Assembly (NCBI GenBank): GCA_965231875.1
Contig: CBDDOM010000002.1
Span: 4,690,487-4,754,486 of the forward strand
DNA length: 64,000 nt
Source: Alphaproteobacteria bacterium
GTDB lineage: Bacteria; Pseudomonadota; Alphaproteobacteria; MPNO01
Direction of reading: 5' to 3'
The notes beneath the pieces are model-generated. The model made no database searches, was not told the origin of the DNA, and saw only the letters and a program-made list of their open reading frames with translations. This document shows, piece after piece, positions 26,496 to 52,827 of this stretch (positions are counted from its first letter, which is position 1; each line of letters begins with the position of its first letter). A program made the position numbers and the translations under genes.

Positions 26496-27224
26496 ATGAC
26501 CGAGAACCGTCAGGACGAGGCGTTGGGGTTCGAAGCCTTCGAATTTCCCCCGGATCCGGCAGATGATTTCGAATGGGTTCCAGCGACGCCCGAAATTGCG
26601 GGCAATCTGACCGAACCGCGGGAGGCCGATTGGCGGACCGCCGGCACCAGCCGCCGGGCGTTCCTGCGCGGCGTCGTCTGTTCGGGTGTCGCCGTCTCGG
26701 CGTCCGCCTACATGTTCACCGTGCAATCGGGCGAGGCGCGCGCTGCGGTGCGCGGCGTCGAGCGTCTGATCTCGCTGAACATCAACGGGAAGACGCGTCG
26801 CGTCGATGTCCCGCCCAGCGAAACGCTGGCCCAGACGATCCGCTACCGGCTCGGCCTTACCGGCACCAAGATCGGCTGCAACCGCGCCGAATGCGGCGCC
26901 TGCACCGTCCTGGCCGACGACACCACGATCTATTCCTGCTCGACCCTGACCCACCAGGTTCGCGGCAGGAAGATCACGACGGTGGAAGGCGTCGCGGCGC
27001 CGGACGGCACGCTCCATCCGGTGCAGCAGGCGTTCATCGACGAGCTCGGACCGCAATGCGGCTTCTGCACGCCGGGCCAGGTGATGGCGGCGGTCAGCCT
27101 CCTGAAGAAAAACCCGAAGCCGACCGTGGACGAAGCGCGCCGCGCGATGTCCGGCAACCTGTGCAGATGCGGCGCTTACCCACATTACCTCGCCGGCGTC
27201 ATGCGCGCGGCAGGGAGGGCATAG
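26496..27224 (+). CDS. Tat-exported (2Fe-2S)-binding small subunit of a xanthine dehydrogenase/aldehyde oxidoreductase-family molybdoenzyme (PaoA-like)
   Basis: Twin-arginine signal SRRAFLRG, and two [2Fe-2S] cysteine clusters (CNRAECGACTV; CGFCTPG..CRCG). Confidence 0.85.
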   Translation: MTENRQDEALGFEAFEFPPDPADDFEWVPATPEIAGNLTEPREADWRTAGTSRRAFLRGVVCSGVAVSASAYMFTVQSGEARAAVRGVERLISLNINGKTRRVDVPPSETLAQTIRYRLGLTGTKIGCNRAECGACTVLADDTTIYSCSTLTHQVRGRKITTVEGVAAPDGTLHPVQQAFIDELGPQCGFCTPGQVMAAVSLLKKNPKPTVDEARRAMSGNLCRCGAYPHYLAGVMRAAGRA

Positions 27225-27227
27225 ATC

Positions 27228-29642
27228 ATGGCCTATACACTGCTCGGCAAGAACTTCACCCCGCCGGATATCCACGCCAAGGTCACCGGCGCCGCCAAAT
27301 ACGCCGAGGACTTCCGTGCCGACGGCATGGTGTTCCTCAAGACCTACCCCTCTCCGATGCCGCATGCCAGGGTCAAGGCGATCGACGTCGAGGCCGTCAA
27401 GAAGATGCCCGGCGTGGTGGGCGTGCTGCTGCCAAGCGAGCTGAAGCAGCCCAAGGACGCGGGCCACGCGATCCTGACCGCCTACCCGGTGTTCGTGGGC
27501 CAGCCGATCCTCGCGGTCGCGGCGAAGACCGAACAGCAGGCGGAAGACGCGATTCAGGCGGTCAAGGTCGATCTCGAACCGCTTCCCTTCGTCACCGATC
27601 CGCTGGAGAGCCTGAAGCCGGACGGGCCGAACGCCCTTGTCGGCGGCAATGTCGCCAACCGGCGCGGCGTCAAGCTGCAGCAGATCAAGTGGACCGGCAA
27701 AGACTTCGCCAAGGCCGGCGACGATACCCTGCCGATGGGCAAGCCAGCGAGCGAGTGGAGCTTCGGCGACATCGAGGCCGGTTTCGCCAAGTCCAAGGTC
27801 GTGGTCGAGGAATCCTTCGTCAGCGCGGCGAACGCGCATCACGCGATGGAGCCTCGCTCGGCGTCCGCGTACTGGGAGGGCGGCAAGTGTCATGTCTGGG
27901 GGTCGACCCAGTCCTCGTCCTTCGCGGTGCCTAGCCTCGCCAAGCTGATCGGCATCAAGCCGACCGACCTCAACCTGGTCAGCGAGTTCTGCGGCGGCGG
28001 CTTCGGCGGCAAGGCCTATTCCTACCCGTTGATGGCCCTGCCGGCGCTGATGTCGAAGAAGCTCAACGGCCGGCCCGTGCTGATGCGGGTAAGCCGCGCG
28101 GACGAGTTCATCAACGGCTCGGCGCGGGCCGCGTTCCAGGGCTGGGTCAAGATCGGCTTCGGCGCCGACGGAAGGGTGCTGGCGCTCGACAGCTACATCG
28201 TGCAGGACAACGGCTCCACCGCCGGGTTCTGGGACTTCCAGAATTTCGGCATGGCGTCGTCGGTGATCCTGCAGCCCGAGGCGATGCGGTTTCGCGGCAT
28301 CCCGGTGCTCACCAACACCCCGCCGAAGGGCGCGCAGCGCGGCCCGGGCGAGAACCAGACGGCCAACATCCTGGAGCCGATCCTCGACAGGGCGGCGCGC
28401 GAGCTGGGCATCGACCGGCTGGCGCTGCGTCTCGCGAACGCGCCGGGCGGCGGGCCGAACGGCAAGATCGGACCCAAGCAGGGGCCGCTCACCAGCGCCT
28501 TTCTCAAGGAAGGGCTGGAGCAGGCCGCCGCGAAGTGGGGCTATGCGGAGCGGATCAAGAAGACCGGCAAGCAGGCCAACGGCAAGATCAGGTCGGTCGG
28601 TATCGGTCAGGCTTATCACGCCGCCGGCTATAACGGCTTCGACGGCATGGTCCGCATCACGCCGGACGGCAAGCTTCACATTCACACCGGCGTCGGCAAT
28701 CTCGGCACCTACTCCTACGGGGCGACCTCCCGGGTCGCGGCCGAGGTGCTGGGCTATGACTGGAACAACACGGTCATAGAACGCGGCGGAACGCTGAAGG
28801 CGATGCCGTTCAATATCGGCCAGTTCGGGTCCAACACCTCGTTCACCATGACCCGGACGAACTATGCCGGGGCAATGGACGCCAAGCAGAAGCTGCTCGA
28901 AATCGGCGCGGCGATACTCGGCGGCAAGGCCGACGACTACAAGCTCGACAAGGAGCGGGTGGTTGCCAACAACGGCTCGGGATCGATCACTTTCGCCCAG
29001 GCGGCGAAAAAGGCGATCGAGCTCGGCGGCAAGTATTCCGGCCACGAGGTCGACCCGAAGCTCAACGGGCTGACCAAGGCGGCGGTCGGGATGATCAAGG
29101 GCACCGGCCTGATCGGCGTCGCCAAGGACAAGCTGCCCAAGAAGGGGACCGTCCCGGCGCTGGCGGCGGCGTTCATCGAGATCGAGCTCGATCCGGAGAC
29201 CGGCAAGGTCGAGATCCTCGACTATATGGGCGTCGCCGATGTCGGCCAGGTGCTGCACCCGCAGGGGCTCGACGCCCAGATCCGCGGCGGCGCGGTGATG
29301 GGGTTCGGTCTGGCGGCGATGGAGCGCTACATCTACGACCCCGCCTATGGCCGGCCCAACGCCATCGGATTCCACCAGGCGAAGCCGCCGACCTATCTCG
29401 ACGTTCCGGCCGAGCTTGGCTCGCTCGCTGTCGAGGGGGCGGTGGACGAGCAGAACCCGGTGGGGGCCAAGGGCATCGGCGAGCCGGTTCAGGGGTCGGC
29501 GTCATCCGCCTATCTGAGCGCGGTATCCGATGCGCTGGACGGTCACATGTTCAACCGGGTCCCCGTGGTCGCGGACATGATCGTCAACGTGGTCGCGAAA
29601 CGGCCGCAATCCTACAAGCCGTTGCAGGTCAACAATCAGTGA
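27228..29642 (+). CDS. molybdopterin-binding large subunit, xanthine dehydrogenase family (PaoC-like)
   Basis: 804 aa, starting 4 nt after the FeS subunit. Ald_Xan_dh hammerhead and Moco-binding motifs (GGGFGGK, the QGxGxxT-like QGLDAQIRGGAVMGFG). Confidence 0.85.
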   Translation: MAYTLLGKNFTPPDIHAKVTGAAKYAEDFRADGMVFLKTYPSPMPHARVKAIDVEAVKKMPGVVGVLLPSELKQPKDAGHAILTAYPVFVGQPILAVAAKTEQQAEDAIQAVKVDLEPLPFVTDPLESLKPDGPNALVGGNVANRRGVKLQQIKWTGKDFAKAGDDTLPMGKPASEWSFGDIEAGFAKSKVVVEESFVSAANAHHAMEPRSASAYWEGGKCHVWGSTQSSSFAVPSLAKLIGIKPTDLNLVSEFCGGGFGGKAYSYPLMALPALMSKKLNGRPVLMRVSRADEFINGSARAAFQGWVKIGFGADGRVLALDSYIVQDNGSTAGFWDFQNFGMASSVILQPEAMRFRGIPVLTNTPPKGAQRGPGENQTANILEPILDRAARELGIDRLALRLANAPGGGPNGKIGPKQGPLTSAFLKEGLEQAAAKWGYAERIKKTGKQANGKIRSVGIGQAYHAAGYNGFDGMVRITPDGKLHIHTGVGNLGTYSYGATSRVAAEVLGYDWNNTVIERGGTLKAMPFNIGQFGSNTSFTMTRTNYAGAMDAKQKLLEIGAAILGGKADDYKLDKERVVANNGSGSITFAQAAKKAIELGGKYSGHEVDPKLNGLTKAAVGMIKGTGLIGVAKDKLPKKGTVPALAAAFIEIELDPETGKVEILDYMGVADVGQVLHPQGLDAQIRGGAVMGFGLAAMERYIYDPAYGRPNAIGFHQAKPPTYLDVPAELGSLAVEGAVDEQNPVGAKGIGEPVQGSASSAYLSAVSDALDGHMFNRVPVVADMIVNVVAKRPQSYKPLQVNNQ

Positions 29643-29664
29643 CGGGCGGAACGGAGGCAGACCA

Positions 29665-30654
29665 ATGACCGACTATATGCACGCATTCGACCTCTACACG
29701 CCCGCGAGTCTGGCGGACGCGGCAAAGCTGCTGGACGAGCACGGCAAGGACGCCTGGATCGTGGCCGGCGGCAAGGACAGCTTCGACTGGTTCAAGGATC
29801 GGCACAAGCAGCCCAAGGCGGTCGTGGACGTCAGCGGGCTCAAGGAGCTTCGCGGGATCCGGGACGGCGGCGACCACATCGCCGTCGGCGCGGCGACCAC
29901 GCTGACCGAGATCGAGGAGAGCAAGCTGCTGCGGGACAATTTCCCGTTGCTGGTCCAGGCCGCCGCCAAGGTGGCAAGCCCGCAGATCCGCAATTCGGGA
30001 ACCATCGGCGGCAATGTCTCGCAGGACACGCGCTGTACCTATTACAGGGACGGCTTCCCCTGCTACCGCGCGGGCGGCAATACCTGCTACGCCAACACGC
30101 CGACGGCGATGAACCGGGAGCATGCTCTGTTCGAGGCGGTACGCTGCGTCGCGGTGACGCCGTCGGACACGGCGCCGGCGCTCGTCGCGCTGGACGCCCA
30201 GATGGCGATCTCGCGGGACGGCAAAATGCGGACCGTGCCGGCGGAGAAGTTCTTCATCGGCCCGGACGTCGACATCACGCGGATGACGGTCCTCGAAAAA
30301 GGCGACATCCTGACCGAGATCCGGCTTCCCAAGGCGTGGGCGGGCGCCAAGACGTATTTCGAGAAGGTCGCCGACCGCGAGACCTGGGACTTCGCCCTGG
30401 TCAATATCGCGATGGCGGCCAGGACCGACGGCGGCATGGTGAAGGACGTGCGGGTCGCGTGCGGCGGAGTTCAGTGCACGCCGAGGCGGCTGACCGAGGT
30501 CGAGGACCTGATGAAGGGGGAGAAGGCGGGGGCGGAGCTCGAAAAGCTCGCGCAGCGGGTTGCCGCGCGAGGCGCGAAGGCGCTCAACTTCAACCACTTC
30601 AAGATCCCGCTGATGGGGAACCTCGCGGCGCGCGCGGTCAGATCGCTCGCCTGA
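29665..30654 (+). CDS. FAD-binding subunit of the molybdopterin dehydrogenase (PaoB/CoxM-like)
   Basis: 329 aa. FAD_binding_5 pattern (AGGKDSFDW, AVGAATTLTEI, GTIGGNV). Confidence 0.8.
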   Translation: MTDYMHAFDLYTPASLADAAKLLDEHGKDAWIVAGGKDSFDWFKDRHKQPKAVVDVSGLKELRGIRDGGDHIAVGAATTLTEIEESKLLRDNFPLLVQAAAKVASPQIRNSGTIGGNVSQDTRCTYYRDGFPCYRAGGNTCYANTPTAMNREHALFEAVRCVAVTPSDTAPALVALDAQMAISRDGKMRTVPAEKFFIGPDVDITRMTVLEKGDILTEIRLPKAWAGAKTYFEKVADRETWDFALVNIAMAARTDGGMVKDVRVACGGVQCTPRRLTEVEDLMKGEKAGAELEKLAQRVAARGAKALNFNHFKIPLMGNLAARAVRSLA

Positions 30655-30658
30655 GGGT

Positions 30659-30805
30659 ATGGAGGTTTTCCGCTTCTCGAAGAACGTCTGGGGCCAGGAG
30701 ATACTGCTCGGGATGTCCTGGGATCTGCTCTGGGTCCCGGTCGCGGTGGCATTCGCCTGCATCGCGGCGCATCGACTCCTTCGGCTGGCCCTGCGGCGGA
30801 GCTGA
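30659..30805 (+). CDS. possible 48-aa hydrophobic small protein
   Basis: ATG at 30659, 5 nt after the FAD subunit stop. Encodes MEVFRFSKNVWGQEILLGMSWDLLWVPVAVAFACIAAHRLLRLALRRS, which has one predicted transmembrane helix. Below the track's length cut-off, no homology recognised. Speculative. Confidence 0.2.
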   Translation: MEVFRFSKNVWGQEILLGMSWDLLWVPVAVAFACIAAHRLLRLALRRS

Positions 30806-30820
30806 GTAACCCTCGCGGAC

Positions 30821-31414
30821 ATGTCGGGAAGCGCGGCTGAAGACATTCGGCACCGATGGCCGGACCGTTCGTTCCACTGGGCGATGGCGGCGCTGGTTGT
30901 CGTTCTCCTGGGGACCGCGTTCCTGCCTGTTCTCGGGGTTCGTTTCGACTGGGTTCCGATCCACTGGATTTCCGGTGTGTTGCTGACGATCGCGATCGTC
31001 TTCCACCTCTACCGGGCGTTTCTGGTGCACGGCATCCGGTCGATGATGCCGACGGGCCAGGACCTGCGGGTCGCCCTGAGGCGGGAGCCGGAGGACGGCA
31101 CGGTCAAGTACGACCTCAACCAGAAGCTCTACCACTGGTCGGTAGCGGCGGTGATGCTCGTCCTCGTGGTCTCCGGTTGCATCATGCTCGCCAAGATCGA
31201 CACGCCTCTCTGGCGGCGCGACCCGTCGATCCTCTCGGACGGGAATTGGGGCGTGGTTTATGTCTGCCACGGGGCGGCATCGCTGGCGCTGATCTTCTTC
31301 TTTATCCTGCATCTCTATTTCGCGTTCCTCCCGGAGCACCGGCGGCTGCTCGCGGCCATGGTGCTGGGCCGCGAAACCTGGAGGCCGGAACGAACGCCGG
31401 AGCGGCAATCATGA
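30821..31414 (+). CDS. membrane b-type cytochrome (Ni/Fe-hydrogenase / FdnI-like cytochrome b561 family)
   Basis: 197 aa. Four predicted transmembrane helices, each with a conserved His (SFHWAM, IVFHLY, LYHWSV, YVCHGA/ILHLYF). Likely the membrane anchor and quinone-reducing partner of the upstream periplasmic molybdoenzyme. Confidence 0.6.
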   Translation: MSGSAAEDIRHRWPDRSFHWAMAALVVVLLGTAFLPVLGVRFDWVPIHWISGVLLTIAIVFHLYRAFLVHGIRSMMPTGQDLRVALRREPEDGTVKYDLNQKLYHWSVAAVMLVLVVSGCIMLAKIDTPLWRRDPSILSDGNWGVVYVCHGAASLALIFFFILHLYFAFLPEHRRLLAAMVLGRETWRPERTPERQS

Positions 31415-38807: not shown

Positions 38808-38925
38808 TGGGTGCTCCTCCGCGCGGGCAATCTAGCACCCGGCAGGCCGCGGCGGAATCGCATCGACCGGGATGGGATTGCGGGAATACCAATATTTGGT
38901 ATCGTCGGCGGAAAGGGGCTGTTCG

Positions 38926-39162
38926 ATGCCACGAAACACTTCGGTTTCTCTCGGCGACCACTTCGCCGGGTTCATCGACGAACGGATCGCGTCGGGACGG
39001 TACAACTCGGCCAGCGACGTGGTGCGGGCCGGGTTGCGGTTACTCGAAGAGCACGAGGCCAGTGTGGAGGCCCTGCGTGAGGCGCTGATCGAGGGCGAGC
39101 GATCGGGCCCCGCCGAACCGTTCGATTTCGACACGTTCATTGCGGGCAAGAAGTCCGGCTGA
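38926..39162 (+). CDS. parD: ParD-type (COG3609/CC2985-family) type II antitoxin, no cognate toxin downstream
   Basis: 78 aa, [42 protein letters not shown]..., a ribbon-helix-helix antitoxin pattern. SD GAAAGGGG lies upstream. It resembles the ParD of the intact pair at 57121..57387. A hairpin repeat follows it instead of a parE. Confidence 0.7.
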
Positions 39163-39191: not shown

Positions 39192-39287
39192 GTCATGCTC
39201 GGCGAAGGCCGAGCATCCACGAGTTTTTCGCTGTGTAAGGGCTACGAAAAAACAAAACGCGGATGGTCGGCCTCCGCCGACCATGAC
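39192..39287. repeat. intergenic hairpin repeat, family 1 (copy A, imperfect arms)
   Basis: GTCATGCTCGGCGAAGGCCGAGCATCCACGAG-TTTTT...AAAAAACAAAA-CGCGGATGGTCGGCCTCCGCCGACCATGAC. Same family as the perfect 31-bp inverted repeat at 43486..43578. Confidence 0.6.
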
Positions 39288-41627: not shown

Positions 41628-41731
41628 GCCCTCCCCCGGCCCCTCCCGCAAGCGGGAGGGGAGAAGGCGGGGAGCGCTCGGCGGGCGAGCCTCCCTCTCC
41701 CCCGCGGGGAGAGGGTCGGGGTGAGGGGGCT
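41628..41731. repeat. GC-rich palindromic mosaic repeat, family 2 (copy 1)
   Basis: Contains nested hairpins CCTCCCGCAAGCGGGAGG and CTCTCCCCCGCGGGGAGAG. An inverted copy at about 88% identity lies at 46341..46445. It sits between the convergent genes FAD oxidase and DUF4169. Confidence 0.6.
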
Positions 41732-41791
41732 GAAACCGTCCCCTACGAACCGCGCGCCTCGGCGTCCCCCGAGCGCCTGCCCATACCCTTG

Positions 41792-41827
41792 GTCAAGCTA
41801 TCTATATAAGCCCCTGTCGAAGGGCGG
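41792..41827. repeat. short repeat module, family 4 (GTCAAGCTATCTATATAAGCCCCTGTCGAAGGGCGG)
   Basis: Near-identical copies at 43634..43669 (same orientation) and 43386..43414 (reverse complement). Confidence 0.55.
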
Positions 41828-41836
41828 AACCGGCCC

Positions 41837-42046
41837 TCAGCTCTGCTTGGGTCCGCCCTCGCGGTCGGTCTTGTCTTCGAGCAGCCTGGCGTCGAGGCGC
41901 AGCGCGTCCCGCTCCTTCTGTCGACGGGCGGCTTCCTTGTCCTGCTTGCCGCGCCCATGTCTGGCGCGGTTTTCCGCCGCTTCGTTCTTGCGGGCGAGCC
42001 GTGTCCGCTTCTTCCGGTACTGGTTGAGCTGGATCACGTCGCCCAT
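41837..42046 (-). CDS. small basic protein, DUF4169-like
   Basis: 69 aa from the internal ATG, MGDVIQLNQYRKKRTRLARKNEAAENRARHGRGKQ.... Lys/Arg-rich, and its N-terminus resembles the MxDVINL..RK.RE DUF4169 pattern. Family assignment made from memory. Confidence 0.4.
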   Translation of the reverse strand: MGDVIQLNQYRKKRTRLARKNEAAENRARHGRGKQDKEAARRQKERDALRLDARLLEDKTDREGGPKQS

Positions 42047-42154
42047 CGGATACCCCTCCACGCCGGGTGAGCCGGGGTTGCAGCGGCCTCACGAACCCTA
42101 GCACCCGCCCCGTGGCCGCGCCAACCGCGTAGGGAGAGTCCGGCCCGAAAACCG

Positions 42155-43237
42155 CTACTCCGCGGCCGACCTCAGCTCGGCGGCCGACATGCGGTGGAGC
42201 GCGCGGCGGGCGAGCGCCACCGCCTCGTCGTGGCGGCGGTAGTGCAGCCCGCGTCCGGGATCGCGCGAGATCGCCCGCTGCTGGGCCTCGATCGTCGCCT
42301 TGTCCTCCAGGAACGCCTCGGAGACGTCCTTGTAGAACCGCTCTCCCTCCGGCGAGTCGACGGCGCGGTTGCGGTTGGCGACCGACCAGAAATAGTGGCA
42401 GGTCGTCTCCGTCTCGGGCGTCGCGTGGTGGAACAGACGGAGCGAGAGCCCGCCCTCGCGGTTTCGGTCCTGCCTGGCGCCGCGTCCGACCGCATGCGCC
42501 CCGCCCCATTGCAGCACCGAGGCCGGCGCGACGTACTCGAACTCCGACCAGCGGTCGACCGGCCCCTCGAAGCCGCCGATGGCGACGAAGGACGGCGGCG
42601 GCGGCGAAGCCATCATCCAGCGGACGAACCTGGCGCCGTTCGCGGTAGCGGTCGTGTCCATCTCGGCGTCGACATGGGATTGCGGGAACCCGCCGATGGT
42701 CGAGCCGTGGACGTAGCCGAGATGAGTGAGGTCCATCAGGTTGTCCATCACGAACATGAAGTTCGCCTCGAAGCGGTAGCGGCCGAACCGGAACGGCCAC
42801 TCGGCGCCCGCGTCGTGGAACGGGAAGTCGACGATCCGGGACTCGTCCGCCAGCGCGGGATCGCCCATCCAGGCCCAGACGAAGTTCTGCCGTTCGACGG
42901 CGGGGAAGGACCGCACGCCGTAGAGGCCGCGATCCTCTTCTTCGCCCGGATTGCCGGTGCACGCGCCGTCCGCGCCGAAGACCATCCCGTGATAGCCGCA
43001 CTGCAGCCCGGCTTCCACCACGGTACCGAGGCTGAGCGGCGCGGCCCGGTGGCAGCACCTGTCCTCCAGGATGCCGACCCGCCCGGCGGCATCGCGGAAC
43101 AGCACCGCCTCCTCGCCCAGCAGCGTCCGCGCCAGCGGCTCGTCGCCGACCTCATGCCCCCAGGCCGCGATGTACCACGCATTGCGGACCATCGGCTCGA
43201 TCGGATTGTCGGACATGGGCGGCCCCGTCATCGTCAT
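42155..43237 (-). CDS. Rieske [2Fe-2S] non-heme-iron oxygenase alpha subunit (VanA/phthalate-dioxygenase-like class)
   Basis: 360 aa. Rieske motif CCHRAAPLS..(17)..CGYHG, and a mononuclear Fe site in the catalytic domain (HLGYVHG...). Its size matches single-subunit oxygenases that use a separate reductase. Confidence 0.85.
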   Translation of the reverse strand: MTMTGPPMSDNPIEPMVRNAWYIAAWGHEVGDEPLARTLLGEEAVLFRDAAGRVGILEDRCCHRAAPLSLGTVVEAGLQCGYHGMVFGADGACTGNPGEEEDRGLYGVRSFPAVERQNFVWAWMGDPALADESRIVDFPFHDAGAEWPFRFGRYRFEANFMFVMDNLMDLTHLGYVHGSTIGGFPQSHVDAEMDTTATANGARFVRWMMASPPPPSFVAIGGFEGPVDRWSEFEYVAPASVLQWGGAHAVGRGARQDRNREGGLSLRLFHHATPETETTCHYFWSVANRNRAVDSPEGERFYKDVSEAFLEDKATIEAQQRAISRDPGRGLHYRRHDEAVALARRALHRMSAAELRSAAE

Positions 43238-43290
43238 TCGCGTTCCCTCAAACCTATCAGCGCGAAGAGGTCCGATCCATCGCGACCGGT

Positions 43291-43393
43291 CCCTCGATAC
43301 GCCGCTTCGCGGCTACTCGGGATGAGGGAGAATTCTCGCTACTCCCACGGCAATCCCTCACCCTGAGTAGCGGCGAAGCCGCGTATCGAAGGG
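43291..43393. repeat. palindromic repeat, family 3 (copy 1)
   Basis: CCCTCGATACGCCGCTTCGCGGCTACTCGGGATGAGGGAG with a roughly 25-nt loop and an inverted arm. Second copy at 56719..56810. Confidence 0.6.
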
Positions 43394-43414
43394 GGCTTAT
43401 ATAGATAGTTTGAC
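43386..43414. repeat. family 4 module, reverse orientation
   Basis: CGAAGGGGGCTTATATAGATAGTTTGAC is the reverse complement of the family 4 core. Confidence 0.5.
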
Positions 43415-43485
43415 GAGCGGGAGGTCGACAGACGTTCCGGGAGGCGCCGGGGCATACCCCTTTCGCGCCAGACCGTTCCTCTGTC

Positions 43486-43578
43486 GTCATGGTCGGCGCA
43501 GGCCGACCATCCACGAGTTTTTGCGGCGCCGGAAACAAAAAAACAAATCGTGGATGGTCGGCCTGCGCCGACCATGAC
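43486..43578. repeat. hairpin repeat, family 1 (copy B, perfect 31-bp inverted repeat)
   Basis: GTCATGGTCGGCGCAGGCCGACCATCCACGA-[31-nt T/A-rich loop]-TCGTGGATGGTCGGCCTGCGCCGACCATGAC, with perfect arms. It lies in the P450/Rieske intergenic region. Confidence 0.7.
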
Positions 43579-43633
43579 GGAGGAGGCGGGACAAGTCCCG
43601 CGCCCGCCGGCACCGGGCGCCGGGCCGGTCACC

Positions 43634-43669
43634 GTCAAGCTATCTTTATAAGCCCCTATCGAAGGGCGG
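43634..43669. repeat. family 4 module (copy 2)
   Basis: GTCAAGCTATCTTTATAAGCCCCTATCGAAGGGCGG. Confidence 0.55.
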
Positions 43670-43881
43670 CGGGCCCCCCGCTCCCCCGCAACCGCCCCGC
43701 CTGTCACTCCGAAACACGTCCGGGGTGACATCGGGGTGGGCGGTCTCGTGGTCGATTCGACGAAAATTTGTCCTGTTACGATATTTTTAATTGACCCGGG
43801 ACACGTTTTGAGGTATATTTACCATAGTGGAGAAGTGGGGGCGCCGGAGATTTCGGCGTCCCTTTCCGTTGCCAAGCCTGA

Positions 43882-45207
43882 CTACGCTGGCGGCGTCTTC
43901 GCCGTGTCCCACTCGACCCTGAGCTGCTGCACGCCGCGGAAGGTGAGCGTCGGGATGTATTTCCAGTCCTGGCCCTCGACGAGTTGCATGTGGGGAAGGC
44001 GGCGGGTCAGCTCTTCCAGGATTATGCGCATCTCGAGCCGGGCGAGCGGCGCGCCCATGCAGAAATGCGCGCCGTTGCCGAAGGCGAGGTGGCGCTTGGC
44101 GCCGGAGCGGGCAATGTCGAACGTCCCGCCGTCTGGAAATGTTGCGTCGTCGCGGTTGCCGGAGCCGAGCAACAGCAGGATCTTCGCCCCGGCGGGGACC
44201 GGCACGCCGCCGATCTCCGCGTCCCGCGTCGCGATCCGGCGCCAGGCGAAGATCGAGGCGTCGTAGCGGAGGATTTCCTCCACCGCGCCCGGGATCAGGC
44301 CGGGGTCGTCGCACAGAAGCTGCCACTGCGCGCGGTCCGACAGCAGCGCCTTCAGCCCGTTGGCCGAGGCCTGGGTGGTGGTCTCGTGGCCGGCGAACTG
44401 CATCAGGAACATGACGTTGTAGAGGTAGTTCACCGTGAAGCGCGACGGGTCCTCGCGGTGCAGCCGCACCATGTCGCCGAGATAGTTGTCGCCGGGGTTC
44501 TCCAGCGCGGCGTCGACGAGTTCTTTCGTGAACGCCCAGTGCTCGCCCATGTCGCTCATCATCGCGACCTGCTCGGCCTCGCCGGGCTTGCCCCAGTTGA
44601 CCACCGCCCGGGCCGAGCCGAGGCGTTTGACGAACACCGCGTCGTCGTCCCGCGCGCCGAGGAAGATGAAAATCGCGAGCGCCGGGACCTCGTAGAGCAT
44701 CCGCGACACCAGCTCGGCCTCGCCGTCGCCGGCGAAGCGGTCGATGTAGCGGGTGACGATGGCCCGGATGCGCGGCTCGATCTCGTTGACTCGCCGGGGG
44801 GTGAAGGCATCGCCGAAGATCTTGCGGTGCTTGAGATGCGTCTCCGGGTCCTCGTCGACCAGCGAGGGCTCGATGGCAATGTCGAGGCTGTCGCGCACCT
44901 TCGCCGCGGCCGGGCAGAGCGGCGTCACCGGATGGCGGGCGAGCGCGGCGGAAAACGTCTTCGGGTCGCGGAAGACGGCGACGATGTCGTCATGGCGCGC
45001 GACCGCCCAGTAGCCGGTCTCGGGGCTGTAGAACACCGGCTCTTCCCCGCGCGCGCGCTCGAAAAACGGGTAGGGGTCGGCGAGATAGGCCTCGGAGAAC
45101 GGCCGGAAGCCGGCGCCGAGCGCGCTCGCCGGGCACGCTCGCGGAGCGGCGGCGTCGGTGGCTTCCGGCTCCGACTGGAACATGCCGAGCTGCCCGATCG
45201 TAGACAT
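43882..45207 (-). CDS. cytochrome P450 monooxygenase
   Basis: Heme-binding loop FGNGAHFCMGAPLARLE, I-helix AGHETT, and a K-helix ExxR. About 441 aa from the ATG at 45207 (alternative ATG at 45282). The track ORF begins further upstream. Confidence 0.85.
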   Translation of the reverse strand: MSTIGQLGMFQSEPEATDAAAPRACPASALGAGFRPFSEAYLADPYPFFERARGEEPVFYSPETGYWAVARHDDIVAVFRDPKTFSAALARHPVTPLCPAAAKVRDSLDIAIEPSLVDEDPETHLKHRKIFGDAFTPRRVNEIEPRIRAIVTRYIDRFAGDGEAELVSRMLYEVPALAIFIFLGARDDDAVFVKRLGSARAVVNWGKPGEAEQVAMMSDMGEHWAFTKELVDAALENPGDNYLGDMVRLHREDPSRFTVNYLYNVMFLMQFAGHETTTQASANGLKALLSDRAQWQLLCDDPGLIPGAVEEILRYDASIFAWRRIATRDAEIGGVPVPAGAKILLLLGSGNRDDATFPDGGTFDIARSGAKRHLAFGNGAHFCMGAPLARLEMRIILEELTRRLPHMQLVEGQDWKYIPTLTFRGVQQLRVEWDTAKTPPA

Positions 45208-45365
45208 TTCCCTGTCCCCTTCCGCGCCGCCGCCATCTTGGCGGATCGCCGCCGCGGCCGCCACCGGGGGCTCGATAGACATTTGCACCGCCGGATCGAC
45301 CCGCGTCGGCACGATCCGGCATCGACGCGCCGATAAATGCCGAACCCAACCGAAGGAGAAACGAC

Positions 45366-46304
45366 ATGCAGACAGCGAATGCCTACAGGAATGACGACAC
45401 GCCGGATGCGGCCGGCGCCGGCTGCATCGACCCGAAGGCGCTCAAGGACGCCCGCGAGCGCCGGGGCCTGACCCAGTCGCAGCTCGCCGATGAAGTCGGA
45501 TGCGGCAAGGACACCGTGAGCCGGTGGGAACGGGGCCATTCCCACCGGCTGCAACCGCGTCACCGCGAGTCGCTGTGCGCCGCGCTCGGGGTCCGCTGGC
45601 ATGCTCTGGCGGGGTCCGGTTCCGGCGGGCCGAACGACATTTCCCGCGACACCTGGGTCGGATCGGCGGCCGGAGAAGACATCCGGACGGCATTCCGTCT
45701 TGCGGCCGAACGCTACGACATCGGCGTGCACGACGTGATGAAGACCGCGCCGCTGCTTTTCGTCATCGCCGCCGAGCGGAGCCTGATCGAGCGCAGGCGG
45801 CAGCTCGAAGCGGCCCGCGCGGAGGTCGACGGGACCGCGCGGGCGCTGGCGGACAACGCGCCCTGTCTCGGCCGGGCGGTCGAGGAAGCGGTCCGAAAGG
45901 AGGAAAAATCGATCGCCGAAAACGACATTTTCGGACGCCTCGTCCGGTCCGAAGGGGATGAGGAAGACGACGAAGGGCCGTTCGCGCGCTTCCTCCGCGG
46001 CCTCGCGAGCGACCTTCCGGAGAGCGCGACGCGCGGCTTCCTTCCGGCCCCGGAAAACGCTGTCGGGTCCCCCGCGACCGCGGAGGACGCAAGCCGCGAC
46101 ACCGCGGAAGCCTGGGACGGGAATAGCGTTCTGCGGCGGCTTTTTCCGCATTTCCGCGCGGGCCGGATCGCCATTGGGGAGTATCTCAGGGCGAAACGCG
46201 AGCGCGACGAAGCCGGCTTCCGGCAATGGGTGACCGACGCGCTCGCCCGGGCCGAAGAGCAAGCGCGCAACGCCTCGCGCGCCGGCAAGGAATCGGGGGA
46301 GTAG
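45366..46304 (+). CDS. XRE-family helix-turn-helix transcriptional regulator with a long uncharacterised C-terminal domain
   Basis: 312 aa. HTH_3 region (LTQSQLADEVGCGKDTVSRWERG). Strong SD AAGGAG. Divergent from the P450, with about 160 bp between them. Confidence 0.7.
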   Translation: MQTANAYRNDDTPDAAGAGCIDPKALKDARERRGLTQSQLADEVGCGKDTVSRWERGHSHRLQPRHRESLCAALGVRWHALAGSGSGGPNDISRDTWVGSAAGEDIRTAFRLAAERYDIGVHDVMKTAPLLFVIAAERSLIERRRQLEAARAEVDGTARALADNAPCLGRAVEEAVRKEEKSIAENDIFGRLVRSEGDEEDDEGPFARFLRGLASDLPESATRGFLPAPENAVGSPATAEDASRDTAEAWDGNSVLRRLFPHFRAGRIAIGEYLRAKRERDEAGFRQWVTDALARAEEQARNASRAGKESGE

Positions 46305-46340
46305 GGAATCCATACCGGATCCCGGGCCGGATCGCTTCGG

Positions 46341-46445
46341 CCCCCCTCACCCCGACCCTCTCCCCGCCGGGGAGAGGGTGCTCGCTCGCCGGGCGCTCCC
46401 TGCCGTCTCCCCTCCCGCTTGCGGGAGGGGTTGGGGGAGGGCGGG
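46341..46445. repeat. family 2 mosaic repeat (copy 2, inverted relative to 41628..41731)
   Basis: Reverse complement of copy 1 at about 88% identity. It sits between the convergent genes XRE and MBL hydrolase. Confidence 0.6.
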
Positions 46446-46451
46446 CGTCCC

Positions 46452-47354
46452 TCAGGGCAGGCTGTAGCGGGACTCGGCGGTCGGGGGGCCGTCGCACGCT
46501 ATGCGGCCGGTCTCGACCATGTGCTCCAGATGGGCGAGCGTCGACCTTCCGGCGGCCCAGTGCATGCGCTCCGGCAGATGCGCGTACATGCGCCCGACCA
46601 TCGCGGGCAGCGTCGCGAGCCCGTCGTCGAGGCAGCGCAGGATCTGGCTCTCGCGCATCCGCCGGTGGCCGAGATAGGCGCGGACGAACGGCGCGGGCCG
46701 GTCGATCGGCGGGCCGTGGCCGGGGAGGTAGAGCGCGTCCTTGCGGGCCATGCAGATGTCAAGCGAGCGCAGGTAATCGCCCATATTGCCGTCGGGCGGC
46801 GAAACGATGGTGGTGTTCCACCCCATCACATGGTCGCCTGAGAACAATATCCCGCCCTCGGCCAGCGCGAAGCAGTGGTGGTTCGACATGTGGCCCGGCG
46901 TGAACACCGGCGTCAGCGTCCAGCCGGGCCCCGCGATGGCGTCTCCGTCGGCGAGGTGGATGTCGGGCTCGAAGTCGTGGTCGGTGGCCTCCAGCGGGGG
47001 CTCGCCGTCGCCCGGCGGGGCCGGCAGGGCGCCGACGATGGGGGCCCCGACCGCGCGGGCGAAGGCGCGCGCCGCCGGGGAATGGTCGATATGGGTATGG
47101 GTGACGATGACATGGCTGACCGTCTCGCCCGCCACGGCGCGCGTCAGCGCCTCGACATGGTCCGCGTCGTCGGGGCCGGGATCGATCACCGCGACCTCGC
47201 CCTCGCCCTCGCCCACCACGTAGGAGTTGGTGCCGTGGAAGGTGAAGGGGCTCGGGTTGTTGCAGACGACGCGCCGGACGCCGGGCGCCACGGTTTCGGC
47301 CCGCCCGTATTCGAACGCCATCTGTTTGCGGAACGGAATGTCGGCTTGGGCCAT
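46452..47354 (-). CDS. MBL-fold metallo-hydrolase
   Basis: HxHxDH motif THTHIDH plus downstream His/Asp ligands. About 300 aa from the ATG at 47354. The track ORF (390 aa) is over-extended. Confidence 0.8.
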   Translation of the reverse strand: MAQADIPFRKQMAFEYGRAETVAPGVRRVVCNNPSPFTFHGTNSYVVGEGEGEVAVIDPGPDDADHVEALTRAVAGETVSHVIVTHTHIDHSPAARAFARAVGAPIVGALPAPPGDGEPPLEATDHDFEPDIHLADGDAIAGPGWTLTPVFTPGHMSNHHCFALAEGGILFSGDHVMGWNTTIVSPPDGNMGDYLRSLDICMARKDALYLPGHGPPIDRPAPFVRAYLGHRRMRESQILRCLDDGLATLPAMVGRMYAHLPERMHWAAGRSTLAHLEHMVETGRIACDGPPTAESRYSLP

Positions 47355-47374: not shown

Positions 47375-48481
47375 CTACTGGATGACGATGCTGGGCGCGG
47401 GCTTCACCGCCCCGCCGGAAACCTTCGCCCAGACCGCGTCGGCGATCGCCCGGTAGGCGTCGGCGTGCATGCCCTGGGGGTCGGTGGCGACGATCGGCCG
47501 GCCGGCGTCGGCGCCCTCGCGGATCGCCATGTCGAGCGGCAGCTCGCCGAGGAAGTCGACCTCCATCGCTTCGGCCGCGCGCCGCGCGCCGCCATGGGTG
47601 AAGACGTCCGACCGACCGCCGCAATGGGGGCAGATGAAATAGCTCATGTTCTCGATCACGCCGAGCACCGGTATGTCGACCTTGCGGAACATGTTGAGCC
47701 CCTTGCGCGCGTCGATCAGGGCCAGGTCCTGCGGCGTCGACACGATCACCGCGCCGGCCAGCGGCACGCGCTGCGCCATGGTGAGCTGCACGTCGCCGGT
47801 GCCGGGCGGCATGTCGACGACGAGAATGTCGAGCTCGCCCCAGGCGACGTCGCGCATCAGCTGCTCCAACGCGCCCATCACCATCGGGCCGCGCCAGATG
47901 GTCGGCGAATCGGCCGGGATCAGGAAGCCGATCGACATCGCCTTCAGCCCCCAGGCGAGCATGGGGTCGAGCACCTTGCCGTCGGGCGAGGTCGGGCGGT
48001 CGGTAATGCCGAGCATCAGCGGCAGGGACGGCCCGTAGATGTCGGCATCGAGAATGCCGACCGAATGCCCGGCGGCGGACAGCGAAAGCGCGAGATTGAC
48101 CGCGGTGGTCGACTTGCCCACCCCGCCCTTGCCGGAGGCGACGGCGACGATCCGCTTCACGCTCGGCATGAGCGGCTGCTGGGGCGCCTGCCGCTCGGCG
48201 GGACGCGGGGCCTCGGGCGGCGGCGCCTGTTCGCTGTGCGCGGTGAGCACGGCGGTCACCGACAGGACGCCCGGCACGGCGGCGACGGCGCGTTCGGCCT
48301 CCTTCCTGAGCGGCTCCAGGGCGGGCCCGCGCTCGGGCGCCACCTCGATCGAGAAGCCGACATTGCCCTGCTTGAGAACCAGGCCCGAGATCATCCCGAG
48401 CGACACGATATCCTCGCCCCGGCCGGGGTCGCGGACCGATTTCAGCGCCTCGAGGATGGCGGTCTCGTTCAACTGCGGCAT
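47375..48481 (-). CDS. apbC: iron-sulfur cluster carrier ATPase ApbC/Mrp
   Basis: 368 aa. N-terminal DUF59-like region, deviant Walker A SGKGGVGKST, and a CPHC motif. Confidence 0.9.
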   Translation of the reverse strand: MPQLNETAILEALKSVRDPGRGEDIVSLGMISGLVLKQGNVGFSIEVAPERGPALEPLRKEAERAVAAVPGVLSVTAVLTAHSEQAPPPEAPRPAERQAPQQPLMPSVKRIVAVASGKGGVGKSTTAVNLALSLSAAGHSVGILDADIYGPSLPLMLGITDRPTSPDGKVLDPMLAWGLKAMSIGFLIPADSPTIWRGPMVMGALEQLMRDVAWGELDILVVDMPPGTGDVQLTMAQRVPLAGAVIVSTPQDLALIDARKGLNMFRKVDIPVLGVIENMSYFICPHCGGRSDVFTHGGARRAAEAMEVDFLGELPLDMAIREGADAGRPIVATDPQGMHADAYRAIADAVWAKVSGGAVKPAPSIVIQ

Positions 48482-52536: not shown

Positions 52537-52827
52537 ATGGGGATGCATCCGCTGATCGAGAAACGCCGTGCCGAGATTCTGGCGCTCGCCGAACGGCACG
52601 GCGTCCGCGACGTGCGGGTGTTCGGTTCCATGGCCCGGGGCGACGCCAACGCGGCGAGCGATATCGATCTGCTGGTTTCGCTGCCGCCCGGCAAGACGGG
52701 ACTGGCGCTCGGCGCTCTCCTGGCGGATGTGGAACACCTGCTTGGCCGCCGGGTCGACATCGTGACGGAGGGCGCCCTCCACCCCGGCATCCGGGACCGC
52801 GTATTGAAGGAGGCGCGGCCGCTGTGA
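52537..52827 (+). CDS. MNT-type nucleotidyltransferase (type VII antitoxin MntA-like)
   Basis: 96 aa. GSxxRG...DxD minimal NTase motif (FGSMARGD...DIDLLV). Confidence 0.8.
   Translation: MGMHPLIEKRRAEILALAERHGVRDVRVFGSMARGDANAASDIDLLVSLPPGKTGLALGALLADVEHLLGRRVDIVTEGALHPGIRDRVLKEARPL

Follow-up and report, generated by a model that had tools for sequence, protein, structure and literature searches.

Rieske oxygenases of the VanA type have flavo-iron-sulfur reductases of the phthalate-dioxygenase-reductase (PDOR)/VanB type as their natural electron donors. Cytochromes P450, in turn, are assigned to the same family when they share at least 40% identity with a named member. The CYP116 family was founded by the non-fused ThcB (CYP116A), while CYP116B members are fused to a PDOR-like domain (PMC8449657). 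Here, we analyzed a stretch of 64 kb from an alphaproteobacterial genome (contig CBDDOM010000002.1; hereafter, the window), focusing on positions 42155-46304, where three open reading frames (ORFs) encode a VanA/DdmC-type Rieske oxygenase, a CYP116-like P450 and an XRE-family protein with a helix-turn-helix (HTH) domain. The coordinates of all three ORFs were borne out, and their GC content at third codon positions (GC3, 0.82-0.92) marks them as coding; in the window as a whole, with about 68% GC, real genes stand out clearly by GC3. The initial annotation had described the three genes as an accessory oxygenase module under a divergent XRE regulator. Comparison with related genomes led us to a different reading, namely that the region is probably a mosaic assembled at a variable slot of the chromosome and not a co-evolved oxygenase module.

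The comparison covered 12 loci of the Defluviicoccus-like clade, collected by a scan of representative genomes and by exact-protein look-ups, two of which (L001 and L007) belong to one genome. All 12 share the same frame, in which a GlcD-like gene and a DUF4169 gene are followed by a variable slot, the P450 gene, an XRE gene that may be present or absent, and the genes for an MBL-fold protein, Mrp, HflK and HflC. The P450 gene was found in 12 out of 12 loci, with 82-92% identity. The XRE gene, on the other hand, is limited to one subclade (the window, L001/L007, L002/L006, L004, L005, L008 and L009); it is missing in L010, L011 and L012, where the Mrp and MBL genes lie directly upstream of the P450 gene and run in its direction, the gaps measuring about 35-300 bp, and P450 orthologues without an XRE gene were found in every outer clade too. 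In L012, the P450 gene lies directly between the MBL and GlcD-like genes, with gaps of about 50-75 bp. As to the Rieske gene, intact copies were found in the window and in L005 (89% identity), L010 (85%) and L052 (87%). Only C-terminal fragments of it are left in L001/L007 (residues 272-360 at 55%, together with a piece of 24 residues) and L008 (residues 249-360), and it is absent from L002/L006, where transposases are found instead, and from L011 and L012. Moreover, 6 kb with a GcvT-like aminomethyltransferase gene and a DAO+GCV_T gene, the latter resembling dimethylglycine dehydrogenase (DMGDH), lie between the Rieske and P450 genes of L010. The same GcvT-like and DAO+GCV_T pair follows the P450 gene in L011 and L044, succeeded there by DUF6064 and aldo-keto reductase genes. 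Only in the window and in L005 are the three genes adjacent, and the L005 XRE protein has no HTH. This distribution does not support the idea of an accessory module, as the P450 gene belongs to the core of the clade, the XRE gene is dispensed with in three loci, and most loci have no Rieske gene, a mere fragment of it, or a copy at a distance of 6 kb.

The selection regimes of the genes differ as well. In pairwise Nei-Gojobori comparisons with the sister loci, synonymous divergence (dS) is alike for all genes (about 0.22-0.37), which indicates that the XRE gene has been inherited alongside its neighbours since its arrival. The ratio of nonsynonymous to synonymous divergence (dN/dS) is 0.13-0.21 for the P450 gene, 0.17-0.23 for the Rieske gene against its orthologues and 0.07-0.24 for the flanking housekeeping genes, and reaches 0.50-0.76 for the XRE gene; both oxygenase genes are thus under purifying selection, and the XRE gene is weakly constrained. 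Within the latter, the HTH gave 0.23-0.38 and the conserved C-terminal part 0.55-0.69. In addition, several XRE copies are decaying, as the L005 copy has lost its HTH (its alignment starts at residue 71), the L009 copy has its C-terminus cut, and a copy in L052 (P0027) is seemingly frameshifted. The P450 is intact throughout the loci that carry an XRE gene, including L005 and L009 with their truncated XRE copies.

Based on these results, the P450 gene is a vertically inherited core gene of the Defluviicoccus-like lineage, and would ancestrally have stood behind mrp and the MBL-fold gene in one co-directional array, possibly an operon. The XRE gene would have come later, in one subclade, by insertion between the MBL gene and the P450 gene. 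It probably arrived as part of a small cassette, in which a DUF4258-like gene of small size stood between two XRE genes, and would since have eroded to a single weakly constrained copy, which may autoregulate and may affect the adjacent P450 promoter, while appearing dispensable for P450 retention. The Rieske gene, located beside the DUF4169 gene on the far side of the slot, would have met the P450 gene through loss of the intervening genes, the slot in relatives being held by the GcvT-like/DMGDH-like cluster. In agreement with this, the 644-bp spacer that now parts the Rieske and P450 genes is probably a deletion scar, since L010 carries its 6 kb of genes at that position.

Several points weigh against this mosaic reading. 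Seven loci, from six genomes, have kept the divergent order of the P450 and XRE genes since the XRE gene was inserted, and in four the spacer is short (115-158 bp), which fits a regulatory link. The Rieske gene is intact and near the locus in the window, in L005 and, on the Rieske side, in L052. Furthermore, the presence of GcvT/DMGDH genes in sister genomes and of a demethylase-type Rieske gene here hints at a shared theme of methyl-group removal, so that some functional clustering may exist. It should also be taken into account that the order of events is read from gene presence and absence rather than from a species tree, and that the dN/dS values are pairwise estimates (NG86) from few genomes.

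We then focused on the XRE protein, whose Cro/C1-type HTH (HTH_3/HTH_31) places it in the XRE family and spans residues 26-76 only. The remaining C-terminal part of about 220 residues has no match in Pfam, NCBIfam, PHROG, PADLOC, PDB-sequence (profile search) or PDB-fold searches, just as the initial annotation had proposed, and no ligand-binding or peptidase domain was recognised in it. Outside the HTH, Pfam likewise gave no match in 49 out of 49 members of the XRE family. A word-indexed search returned 44 homologues, all aligned over essentially their full length, and an exhaustive search, for which the last 214 residues served as query, extended the family to 290 representative clusters (50% identity), nearly all of them proteins of about 300 residues in which the domain begins near residue 95. 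Invariant or nearly invariant motifs of the domain are RY...APLLFxIAAExSL..R, EExSIxxxDxFG and GPF. The domain is predicted to be all-helical, with one helix of 44 residues; the structure model of the isolated domain (predicted local distance difference test score, 62; predicted template-modelling score, 0.25) is too poor for fold searching. A viral fold search recovered the HTH only, with the exception of a full-length alignment to phage CI with a template-modelling score of 0.20, which was judged not meaningful. Altogether, the C-terminal domain is genuinely unannotated, and, as an uncharacterised all-helical family, it is the one item of the locus that is mildly new.

The proposal that this domain binds a small-molecule effector found little support. 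The divergent orientation and the short spacer, seen in the window and in L006-L008, could be taken to mean that the XRE protein represses a catabolic module of Rieske O-demethylase and P450 in response to a ligand, an aromatic or methoxylated compound perceived by its new C-terminal domain, and that this module borrows a reductase from elsewhere. Both enzyme families do dealkylate or hydroxylate aromatics (DdmC, VanA_C, CYP116; PMC8449657), and the C-terminal domain does form a conserved family with invariant motifs. Nevertheless, we regard this model as improbable. P450 orthologues do without an XRE gene in L010-L012 and in all outer clades, members of the XRE family elsewhere are not found beside oxygenases, and full adjacency of the three genes occurs just twice, once with an XRE protein deprived of its HTH; moreover, the C-terminal core evolves under the weak constraint described above, and its predicted fold consists of long helices with no match to a pocket-type fold. 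The XRE gene is indeed divergent to the P450 gene, as initially described, but only to that gene, and the view that it stands over both oxygenases is not supported, as the repeat-filled 644-bp spacer and a promoter-like element on the opposite strand part the Rieske gene from the P450 gene, and the P450 gene outlasts truncation of its neighbour. A simple scan of the spacer between the P450 and XRE genes found no sigma-70-like promoter and no evident palindrome, which is weak evidence in a GC-rich alphaproteobacterium.

Distant relatives of the XRE protein offer another perspective. Homologues with 39-41% identity (L003, L053 and L052), which have no P450 gene beside them, are directly followed by a conserved gene for a protein of 94-96 residues (MTxIxITRHGEARxSQRGIR...). 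Its copies in L003 and L053 are 71% identical, and the L052 copy is truncated to 54 residues. The small protein resembles DUF4258 below the Pfam threshold (E = 0.003; 18 bits against a cut-off of 25 bits). In L003, the XRE gene sits among transposase, AbiEii and BrxC genes, and in L052, a close relative of the window, the Rieske gene is followed by an XRE paralogue, the truncated small gene and the XRE orthologue. The small gene has also left a remnant in L005, between the P450 and XRE genes. It may encode the toxin or partner in an undescribed two-gene cassette. Because of its helical shape and weak constraint, the XRE C-terminal domain, as far as the prediction goes, looks more like the oligomerisation or partner-binding domain of such a mobile two-gene cassette than like a small-molecule sensor.

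Taken further, this evidence would make the XRE gene the remainder of a decayed cassette of the toxin-antitoxin or defence type, namely its antitoxin or immunity-repressor half, with no role for the oxygenases and on its way to becoming a pseudogene. We consider this possible, yet doubtful. In its favor, besides the small companion gene and the defence-related surroundings in L003, the HTH is nearest to antitoxin, CapH and phage-repressor types, truncated or frameshifted copies with high dN/dS are found, and no trace of the small gene is left in the window, as the XRE gene is followed by no small ORF and tblastn found nothing of the partner gene; the window gene accordingly does not qualify as part of a type II toxin-antitoxin system. 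However, the window XRE protein is of full length, its HTH is still constrained, the DUF4258 match stays under the Pfam cut-off and PADLOC holds no model for the pair. A bolder proposal would take the helical domain as a new regulator family of about 290 clusters, which works with a DUF4258-like partner as an undescribed addiction, immunity or defence-type switch, and of which a solo copy has been co-opted to control the CYP116-like P450, which is conserved with 64-76% identity in Alphaproteobacteria, Granulosicoccaceae and Chloroflexota symbiont metagenome-assembled genomes (MAGs); we see this as a long shot.

The identities of the two oxygenases, as initially assigned, were confirmed by Pfam and by alignment to DdmC and CYP116B proteins, and both catalytic cores proved intact. 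The Rieske protein matches the Pfam families Rieske (E = 2.6e-16; 59.7 bits, cut-off 20.3 bits) and VanA_C (E = 6.6e-41; 141 bits, cut-off 23.5 bits), and aligns over its full length with DdmC (3gb4; E = 2e-49). The [2Fe-2S] ligand motif CxH...CxxH is present (CCH...CGYH) and lines up with the DdmC ligands, while the mononuclear-iron motif DNLMDLTHLGYVH (DxxxDxxHxxxxH) and the downstream Asp of EDK match DdmC as well, so that the 2-His-1-carboxylate site is kept. By sequence, the gene thus encodes an intact VanA/DdmC-type mono-oxygenase or demethylase. Orthology to characterised VanA at the level of the substrate was not obtained, as no NCBIfam equivalog is reached (best score 78.7 bits, cut-off 600 bits) and the best solved relative, DdmC, shows moderate similarity only. 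An exact-sequence look-up returned no identical copy of the protein, and its orthologues with 77% and 61% identity (range 61-77%; L049-L051) are solitary, with no reductase alongside.

The P450 ORF (43882-45312, minus strand; Pfam p450, E = 1.7e-20) most likely has its true start at Met36 (MSTIGQLGMFQSE...) at 45207, which fits the N-termini of the orthologues; for the in-frame starts further upstream, 45282 and 45312, they give no support. The I-helix (AGHETT), ExxR (EEILR) and heme-binding (FGNGAHFCMG for FxxGxHxCxG) motifs align with those of CYP116B46. Its five best PDB matches are all CYP116B heme domains (6kbh, 6ldl, 6gii, 6laa and P450 RhF, 6ro8; E values from 1e-109 to 1.6e-99). With 42% identity to the CYP116B46 heme domain over 421 residues, the protein sits right at the 40% line and may be called a stand-alone relative of the CYP116 family. 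It ends at residue 441, where the heme domain ends in the 786-residue chain of 6kbh, with no C-terminal PDOR-like FMN/2Fe-2S reductase fusion and no reductase ORF downstream, and is therefore not a self-sufficient class VII enzyme of the CYP116B type.

Overall, the P450 is one of a large group of orthologues, tightly conserved (64-92% identity) and without a named function. In about 30 loci with orthologues of 64-76% identity, no ferredoxin or reductase neighbour is conserved; a scan for cysteine motifs in the small ORFs beside them yielded shadow ORFs only. The MAGs that carry these orthologues belong to Rhodospirillales, Rhizobiaceae, Granulosicoccaceae (Gammaproteobacteria) and Chloroflexota. 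The title of one record reads "ex Bugula neritina", and several isolate names were taken to denote samples from invertebrate hosts. Conservation this high across phyla suggests that the gene has spread horizontally or that a shared substrate is under strong constraint. In one Rhodospirillales clade (L018-L022, L043 and L016), three conserved ORFs flank the P450 gene; read by eye, with no profile search, they look like phytanoyl-CoA-dioxygenase-like, Gfo/Idh/MocA-type oxidoreductase and sulfatase genes. In addition, a sarcosine-oxidase-alpha-like gene was noted in the distant P450 locus L030, making the tie of the P450 to methylamine demethylation genes a recurring one (Table 1).

Regarding electron transfer, the initial annotation had found no reductase partner nearby. 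In agreement with it, no ferredoxin, ferredoxin reductase or VanB-type reductase was detected anywhere in the 64-kb window, positions 42155-46304 included, by a Pfam scan of its approximately 50 called genes. The only 2Fe-2S and FAD proteins in the window are CoxSML-like molybdenum hydroxylase subunits (26496-30654); the cluster at 26496-31414 encodes the 2Fe-2S small, Mo large and FAD medium subunits, followed by cytochrome b561, and bears no likeness to oxygenase partners. Two candidates for a hidden ferredoxin were discarded, namely a spacer ORF for 130 residues (43339-43731), which has no Pfam match, lies inside repeats and is skipped by the GC3-based gene caller, and the small ORF downstream of the Rieske gene, which was identified as DUF4169. 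The missing reductase is unremarkable, because orthologues of both oxygenases in other genomes also lack one; orphan oxygenases with redox partners encoded elsewhere are commonplace. Each oxygenase would then draw its electrons from partners encoded elsewhere in the genome. A single PDOR/VanB-type reductase could plausibly serve both, given that such a reductase suits VanA-type oxygenases and is also fused to CYP116B.

As to the substrates, dealkylation or hydroxylation of aromatics is carried out by the closest relatives that have been characterised, namely DdmC and the CYP116 enzymes that act on thiocarbamates and 2-hydroxyphenylacetate. The GcvT/DMGDH genes occupying the same slot in sister genomes, in turn, hint that methyl groups are removed from amines. 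Neither indication settles the question.

The repeats of the region were also examined. The 644-bp spacer contains the repeats I1 (43478-43586), I3 (43291-43392) and I4, and the direct repeat D4, which, to judge from their sequence, are a dispersed family of intergenic hairpin elements. Nested palindromes are formed by 45-nt arms at 43478/43542 and 39-nt arms at 43291/43354, and three copies of a 36-nt repeat are present; the 22-nt palindrome ATGGTCGGCGCAGGCCGACCAT is found again near 39.2 kb, and repeat copies were found at 41792-41827 and 39195-39284. An Rfam search of 41.5-46.6 kb gave only sub-threshold matches of eukaryotic microRNA hairpins to the repeats, attributable to chance. The sole promoter-like match in 41.6-46.5 kb, a strong one of the sigma-70 type, is TTGACC-17-TATATT at 43791-43819 on the plus strand, followed by a hairpin (-24.6 kcal/mol; z = -2.5) with a T-rich tail. 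The promoter-hairpin element, of about 70 nt, was found by blastn-short upstream of the XRE gene and in the same direction in L004 (9638-9705), L005 (9543-9596) and L009 (8817-8884), and in L006 and L008 its hairpin part alone follows the P450 gene. It could be a tiny small RNA, a displaced promoter or leader of the XRE gene, or a mobile promoter element.

A further 37-nt repeat (CCCTCTCCCC...GGGGAGAGGG TCGGGGTGAGGGGG) has just two copies in the 64 kb, which form a 97% complementary inverted pair and bracket exactly the DUF4169, Rieske, P450 and XRE genes, as if the whole block (41693-46378) were one mobile unit bounded by inverted repeats. This we judge very improbable, as the P450 and DUF4169 genes hold the same chromosomal position in relatives without an XRE or a Rieske gene, the repeat copies flank the P450 gene alone in L004 and only the left copy is found in L001/L007, and neither a transposase or integrase nor a GC anomaly was found. 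Moreover, no plasmid sequence matched the region in a megablast search, leaving a plasmid or mobile origin unsupported. Since its copies are placed differently in L004 and L001/L007, and each is a hairpin lying between convergent genes, the repeat is probably a repetitive extragenic palindromic (REP) or bidirectional-terminator element and not a transposon end.

The features of the locus and the counterparts found in other loci are collected in Table 1.

Table 1. Coordinates of the features discussed, given as positions in the window or, where a locus name precedes them, in that locus.
Feature	Position	Strand	Remarks
REP-like 37-nt hairpin element, left copy	41693..41729	+	97% complementary to 46342-46378
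DUF4169 small basic protein, 69 aa	41837..42046	-	Pfam DUF4169, 4.4e-14; GlcD-like neighbour conserved; left anchor of the variable slot (synteny)
Rieske oxygenase, VanA/DdmC-type, non-heme-iron	42155..43237	-	360 aa; Pfam Rieske and VanA_C; DdmC alignment; intact; looks monocistronic
Rieske-P450 spacer, 644 bp	43238..43881		Nested hairpin/REP-like repeats; probably a deletion scar
Promoter-like element TTGACC-17-TATATT with GC hairpin and T-rich tail	43791..43870	+	Runs into the P450 3' end, antisense to that gene
Stand-alone cytochrome P450, CYP116-like heme domain	43882..45207	-	441 aa from Met36; Pfam p450; PDB matches; orthologue N-termini
Divergent P450-XRE spacer, 158 bp	45208..45365		No sigma-70-like promoter or clear palindromic operator
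XRE-family protein	45366..46304	+	312 aa; HTH at residues 26-76, then unannotated C-terminal domain of ~220 aa, predicted all-helical
REP-like 37-nt hairpin element, right copy, inverted	46342..46378	-	Pairs with 41693-41729
MBL-fold/BLACT_WH gene	46452-47354	-	Pfam; synteny
Mrp/ApbC-type Fe-S carrier ATPase gene	47375-48481	-	Pfam; synteny
Methylamine-demethylation-type genes downstream of P450 or, in L030, at the P450 locus	L010 11685-15341; L011 11539-17036; L044 977-6432; L009 11499-12416; L030 13759-16722
94-96-aa partner gene copies	L003 9189-9473; L053 1461-1751; L052 9099-9263; L005 between P450 and XRE

The Pfam scan of the called genes shows the window to be core chromosome. Its first part holds the dcw cell-division cluster, the CoxSML-like molybdenum hydroxylase genes with cytochrome b561, an amidase gene with GcrA and a sugar ABC transporter. 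These are followed by TerB-DnaJ and ParD, D-glutamate cyclase, the GlcD-like FAD oxidase with DUF4169, and the Rieske, P450 and XRE genes, and then by the MBL-fold, Mrp/ApbC, HflK, HflC and DegP genes, MiaA, IlvBN, IlvC and LeuA, and MreBCD with PBP2. A ParD-type antitoxin gene (38872-39162) has no ParE-like toxin gene called beside it, a weak ParE-like gene being near in the close relative L052, and a small nucleotidyltransferase (NTP_transf_2) gene lies at 52537-52827; both are possible toxin-antitoxin remnants inside the core chromosome.

Altogether, these results describe an ordinary pair of orphan oxygenases and an eroding, inserted regulator, and the interpretation of the locus as a module is largely not supported. 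The chief value of the analysis is corrective: adjacency in a single genome implied a regulated catabolic module, and a dozen sister loci show otherwise, so that annotation pipelines and pathway predictors should not tie the Rieske, P450 and XRE genes together. The residual novelty lies in the domain family of the XRE C-terminus and in the role of the stand-alone CYP116-like P450. These are two modest leads, the former being an unannotated helical domain on XRE-type HTHs, often accompanied by a small DUF4258-like gene, and the latter a P450 very widely conserved in marine and host-associated bacteria.

When set beside known systems, the XRE protein departs from all the regulators considered, as the dimerisation, tetratricopeptide-repeat, peptidase and cupin domains of SinR, phage CI, P22 C2, CapH, the RRNPP-type PlcR and PrgX, and the HigA/MqsA-type antitoxins are matched by its C-terminal part neither in sequence nor in fold. 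DdmC and VanA are homotrimeric Rieske mono-oxygenases with a VanA_C domain, and the window protein shares this two-domain architecture, with no beta subunit; unlike in the DdmC and VanA systems, no VanB-type reductase or DdmA/DdmB partner adjoins the window gene or its orthologues. Finally, whereas the CYP116B enzymes P450 RhF and CYP116B46 carry a fused PDOR-like reductase, the window P450 has neither this fusion nor adjacent ferredoxin or reductase genes, and is, like CYP116A1/ThcB, a stand-alone heme domain.

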